From Patescibacteria group bacterium (GTDB lineage: Bacteria > Patescibacteriota > Patescibacteriia > JACRDY01): 64,000 nucleotides of DNA. The position numbers and the translations under genes were made by a program. The number at the start of each line of letters is the position of its first letter. Position 1 is the stretch's first letter. A model generated the notes under the pieces. That model was not told the origin of the DNA. It made no database searches and was given only the letters and a program-made list of their open reading frames with translations. The stretch is taken from assembly GCA_041653535.1 (NCBI GenBank), contig JBAZFH010000002.1, positions 173,011 to 237,010 on the forward strand, given 5' to 3'. Positions 436-18,964 of this stretch are shown here, piece after piece.

Positions 436-1254
436 ATGATAAAAACGAATAACCTTAAAGTTTTGTTTTTCGGCGACGTCATCGGTAAAATCGGTCGGCG
501 GGCGCTGGTTAAGGCTGTGCCGAACCTTCGCAAAAAATACGAAGCTGATTTGGTGATTGTCAATGTAGAAAATCTCGCTCACGGCAAAGGTATTACTCGT
601 AAAACCTGGAACGAGCTGATTGAAAGCGGTATTGATTTTGCTACTTCGGGAAATCACATATTCAAAAAACCAGAAGGAGTAGAAATGCTCGACGAAGATA
701 TTCCGATTATCCGTCCGGCAAATTATGCACACAAAACTCCGGGTAAGGGTTACAAGATAATCGAAACCGCCAAGGGTCCGATAATGATAGTTAATCTTCT
801 GGGTCAATTGTTTATCAAGGATGAACCGGTACCGACTAATCCTTTCACCAAATTAGCGGATATTTTAGCTAACGCCAAACCAAAAAAGGTTAAAATGGTC
901 ATCGTTGATTTTCACGCTGAAGCCACTTCGGAAAAAGTTGCCCTAGGTCGGCAATTTGACGGCGAGGTATCGGCGGTTCTTGGTACTCACACCCATATTC
1001 CTACCGCCGATATGAAAATTTTGCCAAAAGGCACCGGTTATATTACCGACGTCGGTATGGTGGGAGATAAAAATTCTATCTTGGGCGGACAGATTGAACC
1101 GATACTTGATGCTTATATGAACAAAGAACGCAGTTCACGTTTTGAAATATCGGAAAACGGCATCTGCCTGGCTAATTTTGTCTATCTGGAAATCGATACC
1201 GCCAAAGGCTTGACACGTAAAATAAAACGGTTAGACAAGGAAATTGTCGTATAG
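436..1254 (+). CDS. ymdB: YmdB-like metallophosphoesterase (2',3'-cyclic-nucleotide phosphodiesterase family, TIGR00282).
   Basis: 272 aa with FFGDVIG...VENLAHGKG...DFHAEATSEK...GTHTHIPTAD...GYITDVGM. Near-collinear identity with B. subtilis YmdB motifs. Sits immediately downstream of rny. Confidence 0.85.
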   Translation: MIKTNNLKVLFFGDVIGKIGRRALVKAVPNLRKKYEADLVIVNVENLAHGKGITRKTWNELIESGIDFATSGNHIFKKPEGVEMLDEDIPIIRPANYAHKTPGKGYKIIETAKGPIMIVNLLGQLFIKDEPVPTNPFTKLADILANAKPKKVKMVIVDFHAEATSEKVALGRQFDGEVSAVLGTHTHIPTADMKILPKGTGYITDVGMVGDKNSILGGQIEPILDAYMNKERSSRFEISENGICLANFVYLEIDTAKGLTRKIKRLDKEIVV

Positions 1255-3866: not shown

Positions 3867-3992
3867 AAGTTCACTATATTATAGCACAAAATGATTTTTG
3901 TAAAGGTGCGGCAGGTAAAAGACGGAATGTATGATATAAGATTTGTAATTTTTAATCTCCAGCCGTTAGCCTTCAATCATTTATTTCCAAAT

Positions 3993-4021
3993 TGACTTTT
4001 TGTCATAAATAACGTAAACTT
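3993..4021 (+). promoter_or_regulatory. Putative sigma-70-like promoter for infB.
   Basis: TTGACT (3993-3998), 17-nt spacer, TAAACT (4016-4021), about 14 nt before the infB ATG. Weak -10 and a short leader. Confidence 0.3.
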
Positions 4022-4034
4022 TTGAATACTTGTT

Positions 4035-6041
4035 ATGAATGTTACTGAGCTAGCACGAAAACTAAGAGTAACAACAAAAGAGCTACTGGAACTTTTGCCG
4101 CAGCTTGGTTTTGATATTGGCGCGCGAGCGATAAAAGTTGATCCGCGGGTAGCGTCGCAAATTTTACGGGAATGGCCGCGTTTTTATCGTGAACATCAGG
4201 CTAAGCTTGAGGCTATTCGCAAGCAAAAATTAATCGAAGAACGTAAGCTCAAAATGCAGGACAGCGGTCCGGTAAAACTGTCGGCAGTGATGACTGTCCG
4301 TGAATTCGCGGAAAAATTGGAAGTGCCGGTCAATCAGGTGATCGCCGAACTGATGAACAATGGAATCTTGGCAACGCTTAATGAGAGAATAGACTATGAC
4401 ACCGCTGCCATCGTGGCGGAAGGTTTTGGTTTTACGGTAGAAAAGTCGGAAGATGTCGCTTCCGACGTTGATATCGATAAGGATAAAAGAATAAGAGATA
4501 TCCTTGATAGTGCTGATAAAGAAAAATTGCAAGCACGTCCGCCGGTAGTAGTGGTGATGGGTCACGTCGATCACGGCAAAACTAAATTACTCGACGCTAT
4601 TCGTAAAACAAACGTTATTGATACGGAACACGGCGGTATTACTCAACACATCGGCGCGTATCAAACCATTTTTCAGGGACGGGCGATCACTTTTATCGAC
4701 ACTCCTGGTCACGAGGCTTTTACTACTATGCGTTCCCGCGGTGCCAAGGTCGCCGATATCGCCATACTTGTAGTAGCTGCCGATGATTCGATAAAACCGC
4801 AAACCGTGGAAGTAATTCAGATTTTACAGGCGCTCAATTTGCCTTTTATCGTGGCGATAAATAAAATCGATAAACCAGATGCCAATATTGAAAAGGTAAA
4901 ACAAGATTTGGCGCAGCGAAATTTATTGCCAGAAGATTGGGGCGGCAAAGTTGTTTGTGTGCCTATTTCCGCTAAACAAGGAACTAATATTAATCAACTT
5001 CTGGAGATGATCTTGTTGATTATGGATTTGAATAAAGAAAAAACTATGGCCGATCCTACCGGTCCGGCATGCGGTACTATTATCGAAGCTCATAAAGATG
5101 CCGGCGAAGGAGCCGTGGCAACATTGTTAGTGCAAACCGGTACTTTAAAAGTAAATGATATTTTGTCTATTAATGGCGCTTTTTACGGTCGGGTGCGGGC
5201 GATGAAAGATTGGATCGGCAAAGATGTTTTTGCCGCTCCGCCGGGAATGCCGGTCAAGATTTTAGGTTGGCGGGCGGAAGCCGCGGTCGGTGATATATTA
5301 GAAGTCGTATCCGATGTCAAAAAACTAAACGAACAAAAGATAAAGAAGCAAAAACCGTCGTCTGTTTCTAGCGCCGTAGTAACGCAAACCGAAAATTCCA
5401 GCGAAGAAGACGAGGAGAAGATAAAGACTCTGAATATAGTTTTGCGCAGCGATGTACTGGGTTCGACCGAAGCGATTGTCGAATCTTTGGCTAAACTAGA
5501 AATTCCGCATGGTGTAAAGTATAAAATAGTTTCTCAAGGGCTGGGTAATATAGTTGAATCCGACGTTTTGCGTGCCGAAGGCGACAACGGCGTGGTACTC
5601 GGTTTTAACGTTCAGGTTACGCCACTGGCTAATAAAATAGCGGATGAAAAAAAGGTAGAGGTAAAAACCTATAAAATCATTTATGAGTTGCTTGATTTGG
5701 TAAGAACAAAACTAAACGCTATGATTGAAGTAGAGATTAAAGAAAACGATATCGGCAAGGTGGAAGTTTTGGCGTTATTTAGAAAAGATAAGGTTGGTCA
5801 AGTGGTTGGCGGTCGTGTTAAGTCTGGCAAGATAGAAACCGGAGCCAAGGTTCGCGTGATGCGCGAGAATCTTGATTTAGCGCGACTGAAAATTTTGGAG
5901 TTACAAACCACCAAGCAGATAGTCAAAGACGTAGAGAAAGGTTTTGAATGTGGTATTAAATTAGAAGGAAAATTTGAGGTAGCTGTTGGTGATACGCTGG
6001 AAGTCTATCAGGAAGAAATGATAGAGAGAAAAGTAAAATAA
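4035..6041 (+). CDS. infB: Translation initiation factor IF-2 (short form).
   Basis: 668 aa with G-domain VVVMGHVDHGKTKLLDAIR, DTPGHEAFT, NKIDK, plus the C-terminal beta-barrel domains. Confidence 0.95.
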   Translation: MNVTELARKLRVTTKELLELLPQLGFDIGARAIKVDPRVASQILREWPRFYREHQAKLEAIRKQKLIEERKLKMQDSGPVKLSAVMTVREFAEKLEVPVNQVIAELMNNGILATLNERIDYDTAAIVAEGFGFTVEKSEDVASDVDIDKDKRIRDILDSADKEKLQARPPVVVVMGHVDHGKTKLLDAIRKTNVIDTEHGGITQHIGAYQTIFQGRAITFIDTPGHEAFTTMRSRGAKVADIAILVVAADDSIKPQTVEVIQILQALNLPFIVAINKIDKPDANIEKVKQDLAQRNLLPEDWGGKVVCVPISAKQGTNINQLLEMILLIMDLNKEKTMADPTGPACGTIIEAHKDAGEGAVATLLVQTGTLKVNDILSINGAFYGRVRAMKDWIGKDVFAAPPGMPVKILGWRAEAAVGDILEVVSDVKKLNEQKIKKQKPSSVSSAVVTQTENSSEEDEEKIKTLNIVLRSDVLGSTEAIVESLAKLEIPHGVKYKIVSQGLGNIVESDVLRAEGDNGVVLGFNVQVTPLANKIADEKKVEVKTYKIIYELLDLVRTKLNAMIEVEIKENDIGKVEVLALFRKDKVGQVVGGRVKSGKIETGAKVRVMRENLDLARLKILELQTTKQIVKDVEKGFECGIKLEGKFEVAVGDTLEVYQEEMIERKVK

Positions 6042-15009: not shown

Positions 15010-18000
15010 ATGAATGAATATAATCACCAAGAAATAGAAAAGAAATGGCAGAAGGTTTGGACAGGGCAAAATATTTATCGCACTCGAGAAGACAAGGGTA
15101 GACCCAAGTTTTACATTTTGGATATGTTTCCCTATCCCTCTGGTGTGGGACTACATGTTGGTCATCCCAAAGGATATATTGCTACTGATATTTTTGGTCG
15201 GGCTAAATCAATGCAGGGCTACAATGTGCTCCATCCCATGGGATGGGACGCTTTTGGCTTGCCGGCAGAAAACTACGCTATCCAAAACAAAGTTCATCCG
15301 CGCCAGGCGACAGAAGAAAATATCAAAACTTTCAAAAATCAGCTAGCCATACTCGGTTTCACTTACGATTGGGAAAGAGAAATCAATACTACTGACCCGG
15401 CGTATTACAAATGGACGCAGTGGGCTTTTATTCAGATGTTCAAAAAAGGTCTTGCTTACGAATCATACGAGCCGATCAACTGGTGTCCATCTTGCAAAAC
15501 CGGTCTAGCCAACGAAGATCTGGAAAACGGTCTTTGCGAACGTTGCGGTTCAGAAGTAGAACGTAAACCCATTCGACAGTGGGTGCTAAAGATTACCGAT
15601 TACGCCGACCGACTACTAAACGATTTGGAAAAATTGCCGGACTGGGAAGAGTCGATCAAAGAAATGCAGAGGAATTGGATTGGGAGGTCGGAGGGGGTAG
15701 AGATAGAATTTAAAATTAAAAATAATGGTGAGCAGCAGTATAACCCACCAATTAATTGGTGGGTTAACAGTGGTGACGGAGACGTTTGGTTTTTTGTTAC
15801 TTTCCCGACTTACAGCCGAGGTTTATTTTTTGAAGAGCAAGGTGAGGCTCAGAAAATAATCAATATTTTTGAGCAGATTGTTAAGGAAAAAAAATATCAA
15901 GTGGCAGATATCGCGGTTATGCCAGAGCACGTACACCTGCTTGTTAAACGCGGAAAAAAAGACGATTTGGAAAAGATTGTTAAAAACCTCAAAGGTATTA
16001 GTTCTCGTTTGTATGATCAAAGCGAGGAGCATTTATGGGCTAAAAGTTTTGAATACGAAACGATAGAGAACCAAGTAGATTTTGATAAGGTGATTAGTTA
16101 TTTACAAAATAATCCGATCAAGGCGGGTTTGCCAAAAGATGGTAGACTTTTATCCGAGTATCGGATGACTACGATTGGTGGGTCAGTCGACAGGATTAAG
16201 GTGTTTACTACTCGACCGGACACGCTCTATGGCGCAACTTATTTAGTATTGTCGCCGGAGTACGCGTGGTTAAACTCAGTGTCGCCGGAGTACGCGTGGT
16301 TAAACCACCAATTAATTGGTGGTTTAACCAATGCAGATGAAGTGGTGGCTTATATCGAGAAGACCAAGCAAAAAACCGATCTAGCTCGCCAGGCGGAAAA
16401 AGAAAAAACCGGCGTTGAGTTAAAAGGCATCAAAGCTATCAATCCGGTTAATGGCGACGAGCTGCCGATTTTTATTGCCGACTATGTTTTGTCCAGTTAC
16501 GGCACGGGAGCTATCATGGCAGTGCCAGCTCACGATGAAAGAGATTTTGAATTTGCCAAGAAATTTAACTTGCCGATCATTCCGGTTATTAAAGATGAGG
16601 ATAAAGATAAACGTGGAACAATTTTGGTTATTCATGGACTATGCGGAAATTCTAATGAAAATTGGTTTCCGTGGTTAAAAGATAATGCCCAAAAAATTGG
16701 TTATGAGGTTTTAGTCCCAGATCTACCAAATGCAGATGAACCAAAAATGGAAGAATGGTTGTCGGTTTTAGCTGGTCTAAAAGAAAAATTAGTTGGTGAG
16801 ATAATTGTAATTGGTCATAGTTTGGGCGCTGCAGTGGCTTGTAAATTTGTTGAAGAAAATAATTTGAAAATAAATAAGTTAATTTTAGTTGCGCCGACTG
16901 GGTCAAGTCAAGGTGAAGATAATTGGCAAGCGTTAAAAAGTGCTGGTGTAACAGATAGTGGCATTCAAGCAATTAAAGATTTTAACGGAGTGAAAATTGA
17001 TTGGAAAAATTTGCAAAGTTTAATCGAAAGTCCGTTTATTTGTATGTCAGACAATGATCCATATATTCCGTTGGAAGTTCAGAATGATTATAAAGGAATA
17101 AATCCGGCAATTAGAATATTTTCTAACTGCGGTCATTTTAATCAAAAAGCGGGTTTTATCAAGTTTCCTGAATTAATGGCGGAGATCATGGATGGGGCTT
17201 ATGTCGGCAAAGGTGGTTTGGTTAATTCAGGAGAATTTGATGGTATGGAAGTTGATGAAGCCAAGAAAAAAATTACTAAAAAAGTTGGCGGCAAACTGAC
17301 CGTCCAATACAAACTTCGCGATTGGGTGTTTTCTCGCCAGCGTTATTGGGGCGAGCCGATTCCGCTCGTCAAATGCGACAAATGCGGCTGGGTAGCAGTA
17401 CCGGAAAAAGATTTGCCGGTCGAGCTTCCTGATGTAAGATTTTACGAGCCAACCGGTACGGGTGAATCACCGCTAGCTAATATTACCGACTGGGTAAATA
17501 CCACTTGCCCGGAGTGCGGCGGACCAGCTAAACGTGAAACCAACACCATGCCACAGTGGGCTGGATCATCTTGGTATTATTTACGTTATATCGATCCGCA
17601 CAATGATACGGCGCTAGTCGACAAGAAAAAAGAAAAATATTGGTCGCCGGTTGATTTTTACGTTGGTGGAGCTGAGCACGCGACACGACATTTGATTTAC
17701 GCTAGATTTTGGCACAAATTTTTGTATGATATTGGCGCGGTAAATTATGATGAGCCGTTTAAGAGATTGCAACACGTTGGATTGATACTAGCTGAAGACG
17801 GTCGCAAGATGAGTAAGCGTTGGGGCAACGTGATAAACCCAAACGATATCGTCCGCGATTATGGCGCTGACGCCATGCGTGTTTACGAAATGTTTATGGG
17901 ACCTTTTTCGCAACCCTGCGCTTGGAGTACAGATGGGTTGGTTGGAGCTAGAAGATTTTTGGTTAAGATATGGAAATTGCAAGATAAAGTAAAGGAGACG

Positions 18001-18474
18001 GAAATTGAGAAATTAGAAATTAAGAAATTGGTTCATAAGACGATTAAAAAGGTTACCGAAGATATTGAAAACTTTAGGTTCAACACCGCTATCTCGGCGA
18101 TGATGATTTTGGTTAACGAAATGGAAAAGGAAGAAAGTATTTCAGCCGCCAATTTTCAATTTCTCATTTCTATATTATCTCCTTTTGCTCCGCATATCTG
18201 CGAAGAGTTGTGGCAAAAGCTTGGTCACATTGACAGTATTACTGTGCGGCCTTGGCCGAAATATGACGAGAAGCTGATTGTTGACGACGTTGTTAGCTTA
18301 GTCGTTCAGGTCAACGGCAAACTAAGAGAAAATATTGAAGTAGCAAAAGACATCACGGAAAAAGAAGCAACCGAGCTGGTGCTAGCAAGCGAAAAAATAC
18401 AGAAATGGCTAGAAGGGAAAACACCAAAGAAAATAATTTTTGTTCCGGGTAAATTAATTAATATAGTTGTTTAA
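15010..18474 (+). CDS. leuS: Leucine--tRNA ligase carrying two large in-frame insertions (HUH-transposase-like and alpha/beta-hydrolase-like).
   Basis: Class I motifs are present: PYPSGVGLHVGHP (HIGH), the NWIGRSEG zinc-domain end, FTTRPDTLYGATY (editing-domain start), AVPAHDERDFEFAKKF, NSGEFDG, RDWVFSRQRYWGEPIP and KMSKRWGN (KMSKS). At 1154 aa it is about 300 aa longer than typical bacterial LeuS. Confidence 0.9.
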   Translation: MNEYNHQEIEKKWQKVWTGQNIYRTREDKGRPKFYILDMFPYPSGVGLHVGHPKGYIATDIFGRAKSMQGYNVLHPMGWDAFGLPAENYAIQNKVHPRQATEENIKTFKNQLAILGFTYDWEREINTTDPAYYKWTQWAFIQMFKKGLAYESYEPINWCPSCKTGLANEDLENGLCERCGSEVERKPIRQWVLKITDYADRLLNDLEKLPDWEESIKEMQRNWIGRSEGVEIEFKIKNNGEQQYNPPINWWVNSGDGDVWFFVTFPTYSRGLFFEEQGEAQKIINIFEQIVKEKKYQVADIAVMPEHVHLLVKRGKKDDLEKIVKNLKGISSRLYDQSEEHLWAKSFEYETIENQVDFDKVISYLQNNPIKAGLPKDGRLLSEYRMTTIGGSVDRIKVFTTRPDTLYGATYLVLSPEYAWLNSVSPEYAWLNHQLIGGLTNADEVVAYIEKTKQKTDLARQAEKEKTGVELKGIKAINPVNGDELPIFIADYVLSSYGTGAIMAVPAHDERDFEFAKKFNLPIIPVIKDEDKDKRGTILVIHGLCGNSNENWFPWLKDNAQKIGYEVLVPDLPNADEPKMEEWLSVLAGLKEKLVGEIIVIGHSLGAAVACKFVEENNLKINKLILVAPTGSSQGEDNWQALKSAGVTDSGIQAIKDFNGVKIDWKNLQSLIESPFICMSDNDPYIPLEVQNDYKGINPAIRIFSNCGHFNQKAGFIKFPELMAEIMDGAYVGKGGLVNSGEFDGMEVDEAKKKITKKVGGKLTVQYKLRDWVFSRQRYWGEPIPLVKCDKCGWVAVPEKDLPVELPDVRFYEPTGTGESPLANITDWVNTTCPECGGPAKRETNTMPQWAGSSWYYLRYIDPHNDTALVDKKKEKYWSPVDFYVGGAEHATRHLIYARFWHKFLYDIGAVNYDEPFKRLQHVGLILAEDGRKMSKRWGNVINPNDIVRDYGADAMRVYEMFMGPFSQPCAWSTDGLVGARRFLVKIWKLQDKVKETEIEKLEIKKLVHKTIKKVTEDIENFRFNTAISAMMILVNEMEKEESISAANFQFLISILSPFAPHICEELWQKLGHIDSITVRPWPKYDEKLIVDDVVSLVVQVNGKLRENIEVAKDITEKEATELVLASEKIQKWLEGKTPKKIIFVPGKLINIVV
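15741..15766. repeat. Perfect 26-nt palindrome TAACCCACCAATTAATTGGTGGGTTA (left REP-like hairpin).
   Basis: Read directly. It is self-complementary across its whole length. Confidence 0.9.
16250..16305 (+). repeat. 26-bp direct tandem duplication (TGTCGCCGGAGTACGCGTGGTTAAAC, twice, 4-nt spacer) abutting the right palindrome.
   Basis: Copies at 16250-16275 and 16280-16305. The peptide SPEYAWLN is encoded twice in frame. Confidence 0.85.
16298..16329. repeat. Perfect 32-nt palindrome GGTTAAACCACCAATTAATTGGTGGTTTAACC (right REP-like hairpin).
   Basis: Read directly. It shares an 18-nt core with the left palindrome. Confidence 0.9.
16611..17202 (+). other. In-frame YdeN/RBBP9-like alpha/beta serine-hydrolase domain inserted in leuS.
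   Basis: ILVIHGLCGNSNENWFPWLKD...LPNADEPKMEEWL...IVIGHSLGAAVACKFVE (GxSxG nucleophile elbow)...ILVAPTG. Collinear with the B. subtilis YdeN serine hydrolase family (PF06821). Sits between the AVPAHDERDFEFAKKF block and NSGEFDG, where canonical LeuS has about 20 residues. Confidence 0.65.
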
Positions 18475-18475
18475 T

Positions 18476-18964
18476 ATGATGGAAGGTGGTGAAATAATAG
18501 AGCAAAGAAAAACAGACGGTTCTGGAGTTAAAGAAGAGGCGGCTTTGCTTATAGAGCTTCAGGCTGCAGCGGAAAAAGAATTGTCAGATTTGATTTCCCT
18601 TTTTGAGAGAGAAATCACTGCTCCTACCAAACAATTTTCCTTATTTATAAAAAATTCCGTCGAGAGGCTGAAAAACAATCGTGACAGTGGGGGTGGTGAA
18701 ATCAAAGATGGTTTTAATGATATCTTTTCTCGTTATAATGCGGTTTATTCCAAAAGAAAAGAGGATGGAGTTTTTCGTCACAACCTTTTTGATTATTTTG
18801 TTCACGCGGTAGGCGTTTTGGATTTGTTGAAAATGGATATTGATGAAGGCAAAGACAGTAAAAAAAGAAGAAAACAGGCGTTGGAGCTCATTCGTTATGA
18901 CTATGAAAAAGCCAAGTCTTTTCTGGCGCAAAAAATAAACGGTTCTAACGGAAAAGAAGTCTAA
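18476..18964 (+). CDS. Hypothetical protein.
   Basis: 163-aa ORF. ATG at 18476 is 1 nt after the leuS stop. No recognisable motifs. Confidence 0.5.
   Translation: MMEGGEIIEQRKTDGSGVKEEAALLIELQAAAEKELSDLISLFEREITAPTKQFSLFIKNSVERLKNNRDSGGGEIKDGFNDIFSRYNAVYSKRKEDGVFRHNLFDYFVHAVGVLDLLKMDIDEGKDSKKRRKQALELIRYDYEKAKSFLAQKINGSNGKEV

Follow-up and report, generated by a model that had tools for sequence, protein, structure and literature searches.

What is a serine hydrolase doing inside a leucyl-tRNA synthetase (LeuRS)? The question is raised by the leuS gene in a stretch of 64,000 nucleotides (nt), hereafter the window, from a Patescibacteria group bacterium (assembly GCA_041653535.1, contig JBAZFH010000002.1, positions 173,011 to 237,010 of the forward strand). 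A sequence-only reading of this DNA had proposed that a YdeN/RBBP9-like alpha/beta serine-hydrolase domain lies in frame in leuS, downstream of the editing domain, and that it is either an additional proofreading esterase or an unrelated tethered activity. Even with its two large inserts, the 1154-amino-acid (aa) product scored 1018.4 bits with the NCBIfam model TIGR00396 (leuS_bact), whose cut-off is 548.4. The class I signatures are present, HIGH as HVGH (aa 49-52) and KMSKS as KMSKR (aa 933-937). When the protein was aligned with Thermus thermophilus LeuRS (1h3n), the alignment was interrupted at two places, the second of which holds the hydrolase. The features of the gene are collected in Table 1.

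The hydrolase insert takes the place of a short native loop between '..LPIIPVI' and 'AYVGKGGLVNSGEFDG'. Residues 391-528 of the query aligned with residues 238-363 of the T. thermophilus enzyme and residues 722-929 with 368-580; between them, ~193 residues (aa 529-721) stand where T. thermophilus LeuRS has 4. Compared with the insert-less relative P0220, a linker plus the hydrolase (aa 528-729) replaces 8 residues of a 17-residue loop. The insert starts 16 residues past the editing-site residue Asp512 and consists of a short Lys/Asp-rich linker, KDEDKDKRGT, followed by an alpha/beta hydrolase fold at ~aa 538-728; its junctions read ..VIKDEDKDKRGT / ILVIHG.. and ..EIMDG / AYVGKGG... Since the sequence of connective peptide 1 (CP1), the editing domain, resumes after the insert and continues up to '..YKLRDWVFSRQRYWG', the hydrolase is nested within CP1 and not downstream of it as had been proposed. 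The extent suggested earlier (nt 16611-17202) was close, although the boundaries determined here are nt 16591-17196. Both CP1 editing motifs are intact, and we take Thr405 and Asp512 to be the counterparts of T252 and D345 of Escherichia coli LeuRS.

The insert matched the Pfam family PF06821 with 68.5 bits against a gathering cut-off of 22, covering profile positions 1-167 of 172. A direct sequence search related it to YdeN (1uxo; E 1.2e-12), and a profile made from the insert and 112 homologues detected YdeN with an E value of 5.6e-42 and human RBBP9 with 1.6e-34. AlphaFold2 modelled the insert alone with a predicted local distance difference test score (pLDDT) of 94.6 and a predicted template-modelling score of 0.91. 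When this model was compared with the PDB by Foldseek, the best match was YdeN (template-modelling score (TM) 0.81/0.88, root-mean-square deviation 1.9 A), followed by RBBP9, and ranks 1-7 were taken by 1uxo, 2qs9, 7oex and 9fcr with TM up to 0.88. In the full-length LeuRS model the hydrolase was still folded (pLDDT ~78-95) and the LeuRS core was intact. These models were built from a domain-only alignment for the insert and a LeuS-only alignment for the full-length protein; mixed alignments of LeuS and free-standing hydrolases were not used because the short sequences were scattered across the LeuS core.

The triad columns are invariant in the alignment of 112 free-standing homologues, and Ser604, Asp683 and His709 of the query occupy them. 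The family motifs HG, ENWFPWLK, GHSLG, SDNDPYIP and GHF are all kept, and every family-invariant residue is intact. Thus, the identity of the domain, its fold, its triad and its nesting are directly supported, and the sequence-only reading was right about the family, the frame and the preserved Ser of the GHSLG elbow. By sequence and structure prediction, the insert is a complete, folded Ser-Asp-His hydrolase of the YdeN/RBBP9 family, predicted to be catalytically competent, in a length-variable surface loop of CP1, and it would be translated together with an otherwise intact LeuRS as a single polypeptide. An extra loop in its cap region marks a subfamily that comprises most of the close LeuS-embedded copies and a few free-standing proteins. 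Among the latter, P0244 is 47% identical to the query hydrolase and has the same loop. Within the window, no free-standing paralogue of the hydrolase was found.

Other accounts of the insertion itself were considered. An intein was rejected, since the Pfam matches included no Hint or intein family and no splice-junction residues were seen, and an intron was rejected together with it and with an assembly artefact, which is discussed below. When the junctions of the hydrolase were examined for hairpins and flanking repeats, one weak imperfect inverted repeat emerged (17161-17176 / 17222-17237, 88%), and no palindromes were found in three other leuS genes with a hydrolase in the same loop. Because junction repeats are nearly absent, a transposon-like mechanism is not claimed for the hydrolase. 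Pfam and NCBIfam scans of the whole protein and of the insert gave no match to the trans-editing families AlaX, YbaK/ProX and Dtd.

Table 1. Coordinates of the features discussed in the text. Positions are those of the window unless a gene is named.
Feature	Position (nt)	Strand	Basis or remark
leuS open reading frame (ORF), 1154 aa, frame unbroken	15010..18474	+	TIGR00396 score, class I motifs
HUH Y1 insert (IS200/IS605 or RAYT-like), aa 238-390	15721..16179	+	PF01797, NCBIfam, structure matches
28-nt perfect palindrome TAACCCACCAATTAATTGGTGGGTTAAC, left edge of HUH insert	15741..15768	.	Translated NPPINWWVN
CP1 editing motif TTRPDT, aa 400-405, intact	16207..16224	+	Motif reading
Perfect 26-nt tandem duplication, period 30	16250-16275 + 16280-16305		VSPEYAWLN twice, ahead of the 34-nt palindrome
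34-nt perfect palindrome, same core, inside native-length CP1	16297..16330	.	93% identical to the 28-nt one
CP1 editing motif AHDERD, aa 507-512, intact	16528..16545	+	Motif reading
Hydrolase insert, aa 528-729 (linker + fold)	16591..17196	+	1h3n alignment, Pfam, AlphaFold2, Foldseek
Pfam PF06821 Ser_hydrolase match, aa 538-723	16621..17178	+	E 8.8e-19, 68.5 bits
Ser604 codon, predicted nucleophile in GHSLG, = RBBP9 Ser75	16819..16821	+	Homologue alignment
Extra cap-region loop, 10 residues WQALKSAGVT, aa 639-648	16924..16953	+	Homologue alignment
Asp683 codon, predicted triad acid in SDNDPYIP, = RBBP9 Asp138	17056..17058	+	Homologue alignment
His709 codon, predicted triad base in CGHF, = RBBP9 His165	17134..17136	+	Homologue alignment
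CP1 C-terminal remainder after insert, AYVGKGGLVNSGEFDG ... YKLRDWVFSRQRYWG	17197..17352	+	1h3n alignment, P0220 comparison
P0142/P0153 diverged tract	L128 gene nt 689-731 vs L129 gene nt 689-1144		Sister samples

The hydrolase is not confined to this gene. In a full-length search, 42 of the 120 best LeuS matches contained a PF06821-type domain, and all matches among the 120 that were named by organism belonged to Patescibacteria or to an unclassified 'bacterium'. Comparison with related LeuS, which the sequence-only reading had suggested, thus revealed hydrolases in many Patescibacteria LeuS at several loops. Landmark motifs placed the hydrolases of these 42 proteins at three sites: site A, before TTRPDT, in 15 proteins, with a tandem pair of hydrolases in three; site B, which lies between HDxRD and SRQRYWG, in four proteins including the query; and site C, ~14 residues after SRQRYWG and inside a CxxC...CxxC element, in 23 proteins. 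The TTRPDT and HDxRD-type editing motifs were invariant over 55 aligned LeuS and intact in nearly all hydrolase hosts. A metagenome scan yielded 545 relatives; 24 of the 80 best loci, including the top 15 without exception, had the hydrolase inside leuS, and a fourth position was observed in these loci just before 'VxYKLRDW'.

When 1.84 billion representatives were searched exhaustively with HMMER, 2370 matches were obtained. Among the best 150 of these there were 42 long proteins, of which ~25, including most of the top matches, were LeuS or LeuS fragments; none of the 42 was another aminoacyl-tRNA synthetase. The search also provided six more site-B cases: P0243 (49% identical), P0249, P0250, P0251, P0257 and P0291. 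The junctions were confirmed in P0243, P0250, P0251 and P0257 and agree within a few residues across independent samples; P0249 has an additional upstream insert, and the site-B junctions of P0269 and P0291 were not resolvable. The notion that the query is a singleton was discarded: a word-indexed search with the insert alone had returned only free-standing hydrolases, a sensitivity artefact, since the other searches found many embedded copies. As a side observation, the tandem pairs at site A (P0128, P0132, P0167 and P0242) consist of different PF06821 hydrolases, whose order and identity differ between P0128 and P0167 although the two LeuRS are 82% identical.

The same loops of other Patescibacteria LeuRS contained NUDIX, ASCH, PD-(D/E)XK, Ham1-like and aminoglycoside-nucleotidyltransferase-like domains, as well as domains without a Pfam match. 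NUDIX, of ~150 aa, is the usual occupant of site B and is present at site A too; site A of the query leuS holds an IS200/RAYT-like HUH domain. Judged from these sequences, the LeuRS loops are a general landing platform that accepts at least seven kinds of small enzyme domains in three or four loops. Inserts of ~115-125 aa without a Pfam match were seen at site B in P0133, P0149, P0177, P0195 and P0214, and P0231 has one of 171 aa at a fourth site. NUDIX and hydrolase domains often occur together in one LeuRS and are fused outside LeuRS in P0274 and P0370; in locus L004 (3483-4552) a free-standing hydrolase gene overlaps the upstream NUDIX gene by 4 nt. These associations suggest that NUDIX and the serine hydrolase work together, and a count of their co-occurrence (19 NUDIX inserts found by regular expression in a query-biased set) was not relied on.

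The distribution of the inserts resembles that of cassettes. Insert states are patchy over the LeuS core tree, and the nearest neighbours of the query have no insert. The nearest relatives of embedded copies are embedded copies at other sites: the query hydrolase, at site B, is 45-46% identical to site-C copies, and the hydrolases of P0166 (site C), P0187 (site A) and P0128 (site A) are 60% identical. Identity of the hydrolases was barely correlated with that of their host LeuS (r = 0.19), and in 52 of 190 pairs the hydrolases resembled each other more closely than their hosts did. Recurrence and cassette-like distribution are thus directly documented. A recent event was captured in the leuS genes of P0142 and P0153, which share 98.4% protein identity and ~99% DNA identity apart from the site-A tract, where 43 nt of the former give way to 456 nt in the latter that encode NUDIX. 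Codons of the flanking beta strands and a low-complexity linker of the AAAATC type also belong to the diverged tract. This points to a recent gain, loss or replacement of a NUDIX cassette by allelic replacement via conserved flanks, not by precise transposition.

Base composition also sets the hydrolase apart from its host. The G+C content at third codon positions (GC3) was 0.24 in the query hydrolase insert vs 0.44 in the LeuS core, and the other 51 ORFs of the window had a mean of 0.398 (standard deviation 0.053) with none below 0.28. In 22 of 24 further leuS loci, too, the embedded copy had a lower GC3 than its host gene (mean -0.088, Wilcoxon p = 8e-7), and four free-standing hydrolase genes had GC3 like their neighbours. 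A further arrangement was observed in locus L072, where a 238-aa ORF (3884-4600, = P0248) lies directly upstream of a complete leuS starting at ~4640. The P0248 ORF comprises a duplicated leuS start (24 codons), the site-A junction and a hydrolase of the query subfamily, followed by a stop, and the leuS downstream carries a different hydrolase at site A. P0248 looks like a by-product of recombination and shows a possible route from embedded to free-standing forms.

Are the embedded copies maintained? Ser was kept in 45 of 45 embedded copies and His in 44; in the 112 free-standing copies Ser and Asp were invariant and His was present in all 112. The triad Asp was found in its alignment column in 32 of the 45 embedded copies, a count affected by some alignment ambiguity, one divergent site-C clade being ambiguous. 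Some embedded copies of other lineages are without the Asp or have diverged in the family motifs. Synonymous sites were saturated in most pairs, and the ratio of nonsynonymous to synonymous substitution rates (dN/dS, omega) was therefore taken from one pair, L052/L055, which gave 0.12 for the hydrolase and 0.11 for the C-terminal part of LeuS. The embedded hydrolases are under purifying selection (omega ~0.12), indicating a working gene and not debris.

What such a domain may do was approached through its relatives. Free-standing hydrolases are fused to NUDIX, S33-like hydrolase, Peptidase_S51 or methyltransferase domains, and their genes adjoin those for NUDIX (overlapping), Ham1, Peptidase_S51 and methyltransferase; the cargo of LeuRS therefore mirrors the neighbourhood of small house-keeping hydrolases. 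YdeN (1uxo) and RBBP9 (2qs9, 7oex) share with the query domain the fold, the order and position of the triad, the GHSxG elbow and a length of ~185-195 aa. They differ from it in being free-standing, whereas the query domain is nested in another enzyme and has the extra cap loop. Human RBBP9 releases one amino acid from the N-terminus and needs a free alpha-amine to do so (PMC8866121), and the reference list of PMC7730578 cites it as the enzyme that activates valacyclovir, a valyl ester. Of the family members looked up, RBBP9 alone has an assigned activity; the sources consulted give none for YdeN. The alpha-amine anchor of RBBP9, Glu108, corresponds to Gln653 here and the pocket residue Tyr99 to Thr630, and neither position is conserved; therefore, the substrate preference of RBBP9 is not transferable to the query domain.

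Several known systems resemble the arrangement in part. CP1 of class Ia synthetases (LeuRS and the isoleucyl- and valyl-tRNA synthetases, IleRS and ValRS) is itself a hydrolytic domain inside the synthetase fold that removes wrong amino acids from tRNA, and the query insert repeats this pattern one level down, as a hydrolase in a hydrolase in a synthetase. CP1 nevertheless has an unrelated fold and chemistry, without a Ser nucleophile or an acyl-enzyme, and is near-universal and vertically inherited, whereas the insert is lineage-restricted, patchy and mobile. AlaX, YbaK/ProX and D-aminoacyl-tRNA deacylase are accessory proteins that carry out aminoacyl-tRNA ester hydrolysis, the reaction first proposed for this domain; we know of no such trans-editing deacylase that is an alpha/beta hydrolase. 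As far as we know, accessory domains of synthetases are mostly terminal fusions and fixed in their lineages. An extra enzyme or binding domain is likewise carried by IleRS with an N-acetyltransferase domain (NCBIfam NF040702) and by eukaryotic synthetases with appended domains; the query domain differs in its nesting in an internal loop, in the many kinds of cargo and in the variation between near-identical alleles. Like inteins and homing insertions, the hydrolase lies in frame in a conserved essential gene, is patchily distributed and could spread by use of conserved flanks. It differs from inteins in having neither a Hint domain nor splice residues, in its predicted retention in the mature protein and in being an ordinary metabolic-type enzyme.

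On balance, we favour reading the domain as an autonomous hydrolase of the aminoacyl/ester type that is attached to LeuRS as an exchangeable cassette. The hydrolase would be one of a pool of cassettes in Patescibacteria leuS that also includes NUDIX, ASCH, Ham1-like, nucleotidyltransferase, PD-(D/E)XK and HUH domains, and leuS alleles would acquire, lose and pass on these cassettes, most probably through homologous recombination in conserved flanks. By analogy with RBBP9, we infer that the hydrolase may act on an ester or amide, from which it would release an acyl group (most plausibly aminoacyl) via an acyl-Ser604 intermediate. LeuRS would be mainly a permissive, constitutively expressed carrier that does not rely on the hydrolase for fidelity, and the hydrolase would act independently of leucylation and editing, with recombination as the presumed route of its spread. 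Among the initial proposals, the fallback of an unrelated tethered activity is closer to this explanation than the proofreading idea. Several observations weigh against our reading. The LeuS match sets and metagenome loci were chosen by similarity to the query, which biases the fractions 42/120 and 24/80 and the incongruence statistics; the exchange by recombination was seen in one allele pair, for a NUDIX cassette and not for the hydrolase; and the low GC3 could partly come from weaker codon selection in a less conserved segment and not from foreign origin. In addition, the hydrolase was found embedded in LeuRS only, at several independent loops, as a LeuRS-linked function predicts, and the model of an opportunistic carrier has to add that cassettes spread mainly within leuS. 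The chemistry of RBBP9, with its removal of free-amine amino acids and its valyl-ester hydrolysis, matches by analogy what aminoacyl-tRNA deacylation would need. Because of this chemistry and the exclusive association with LeuRS, the proofreading idea stays alive. It holds that the hydrolase is an extra module in cis that deacylates mischarged, D- or non-cognate aminoacyl-tRNALeu, or hydrolyses non-cognate aminoacyl-adenylates, and so supplements CP1. The attachment to LeuRS alone at three or four loops in or beside CP1, the start of the insert 16 residues past Asp512, and the conserved triad with omega ~0.12 all agree with it, as do the need of RBBP9 for a free alpha-amine and its aminoacyl-enzyme intermediate (PMC8866121) and the valyl ester valacyclovir cited as its substrate in PMC7730578. 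We nevertheless consider it rather unlikely, since the CP1 editing motifs are intact in the hosts and leave no function to replace, many close LeuRS relatives do without any insert, and chemically unrelated domains occupy the same loops. The varied position (A, B, C or tandem) fits poorly with a fixed geometry to A76, the amine anchor Glu108 of RBBP9 is a non-conserved Gln653 here, and the inserts behave as exchangeable cassettes. Moreover, members of the subfamily exist as free-standing proteins apart from LeuRS, and close free-standing homologues are fused or adjacent to NUDIX, peptidase or methyltransferase domains.

Alternatively, the hydrolase might protect the synthetase: like the NUDIX and nucleotidyltransferase cargo, it could inactivate small-molecule LeuRS inhibitors, such as aminoacyl-nucleotide or -ester mimics, on site. 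The cargo does include types used against such compounds (aminoglycoside-nucleotidyltransferase-like, NUDIX), an NCBIfam model exists for IleRS with a GNAT domain, and a patchy, horizontally mobile distribution is typical of resistance functions. MccH homologues tested for microcin C resistance in E. coli, most of which were protective, included a standalone one from Parcubacteria; one Parcubacteria protein, DG742, was inactive (PMC7157772). However, no LeuRS inhibitor is known for these organisms, the domain has no homology to known immunity hydrolases such as MccF, and ASCH, Ham1, PD-(D/E)XK and HUH cargo do not fit; the argument is wholly by analogy, and we regard such detoxification or immunity as improbable. 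It is equally doubtful that the domain is a neutral or selfish passenger, useless, tolerated in a permissive loop and heading for decay. Patchy distribution, the odd composition (GC3 0.24) and the loss of Asp or divergence of motifs in some embedded copies of other lineages would be expected of a passenger, but the query gene keeps every family-invariant residue, virtually every embedded copy retains Ser and His, dN/dS of ~0.12 equals that of the host, and the fold is predicted with confidence. That a separate hydrolase gene was joined to leuS by chimeric assembly or a wrongly called frame is effectively refuted. Apart from the origin of the sequence from a metagenome-assembled genome, nothing speaks for it; the gene is one unbroken ORF with LeuS sequence on either side, and a 323-kb contig recorded for 'Patescibacteria group bacterium' encodes an identical protein. 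Hydrolases occupy the same loop in at least six other LeuS of independent samples, four with confirmed junctions, and dozens lie at other loops; since the site-B junctions coincide in independent samples, an assembly artefact is excluded. The tethered-cassette reading, which we retain, could also be joined with a function at the synthetase: leuS may be a recombination-driven platform with non-random cargo, whose hydrolase works in cis on LeuRS chemistry, with aminoacyl esters of tRNALeu or aminoacyl-nucleotide mimics as its substrates. We put this forward tentatively, as a proposal that is more likely wrong than right. If it were true, reduced genomes would gain a modular, exchangeable second layer of quality control or inhibitor resistance within a synthetase.

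Textbooks present aminoacyl-tRNA synthetases as enzymes that evolve slowly and are inherited vertically, and discussion of new domains on them has mostly concerned eukaryotes. We found no description in the literature of domain insertions in LeuRS of the candidate phyla radiation (CPR), although the sequences of hydrolase-bearing LeuRS are already public under automatic names. Accessory domains on synthetases are known; what is apparently new is that, in a bacterial synthetase, a serine hydrolase sits within CP1 and belongs to a recombining insertion system with several kinds of cargo. The pattern suggests that CPR leuS genes acquire, lose and exchange entire enzyme domains, and it offers a natural map of the LeuRS sites that tolerate domain insertion and a candidate for a new kind of synthetase-attached aminoacyl-ester hydrolase. 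Domain-level gene flow within leuS, an essential gene and a frequent choice of phylogenetic marker, also bears on tree building. Annotation is affected as well: the identical protein already on record is labelled 'alpha/beta fold hydrolase' by NCBI and leucyl-tRNA synthetase by JGI.

The other interruption of the alignment is a second in-frame insert, which the sequence-only reading had not mentioned. Nothing equivalent to aa 238-390 exists between residues 237 and 238 of T. thermophilus LeuRS. This insert, at the first hairpin of CP1, has the HUH motif H307-V-H309 and Tyr364 in SYLQNNP. It matched PF01797 (Y1_Tnp) with an E value of 2.4e-15 and 57 bits against a cut-off of 23, and came slightly under the cut-offs of two NCBIfam models (REP_Tyr_transpos, 76.1 vs 80; IS200, 54.6 vs 55); its structure matches were ISDra2, IS608 and RAYT. 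It was poorly modelled in the full-length prediction because there was no alignment depth. Two palindromes sharing the core CCACCAATTAATTGGTGG bracket the HUH domain and are translated as protein, and at the second of them the conserved 'APEH' of CP1 reads 'SPEY'. These two are the only copies in the window (0 expected by chance). Genuine LeuS codons (aa 391-430) lie between the palindromes as well, so the arrangement is not that of a simple IS insertion. A scan of 596 Gb of genomes for the palindrome core gave 39 scattered single matches, none in leuS, and the matches elsewhere look like chance.

A few further features of the gene and its surroundings were noted. The leucine-specific domain of the T. 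thermophilus and E. coli enzymes (T. thermophilus residues 581-636) is absent, and aa 929-933 stand at that point. Rfam and tRNA scans of the window gave no matches. The next ORF (18467-18964, 165 aa) has a TTG start and an 8-nt overlap with leuS at its stop codon, and it is probably translationally coupled to leuS.

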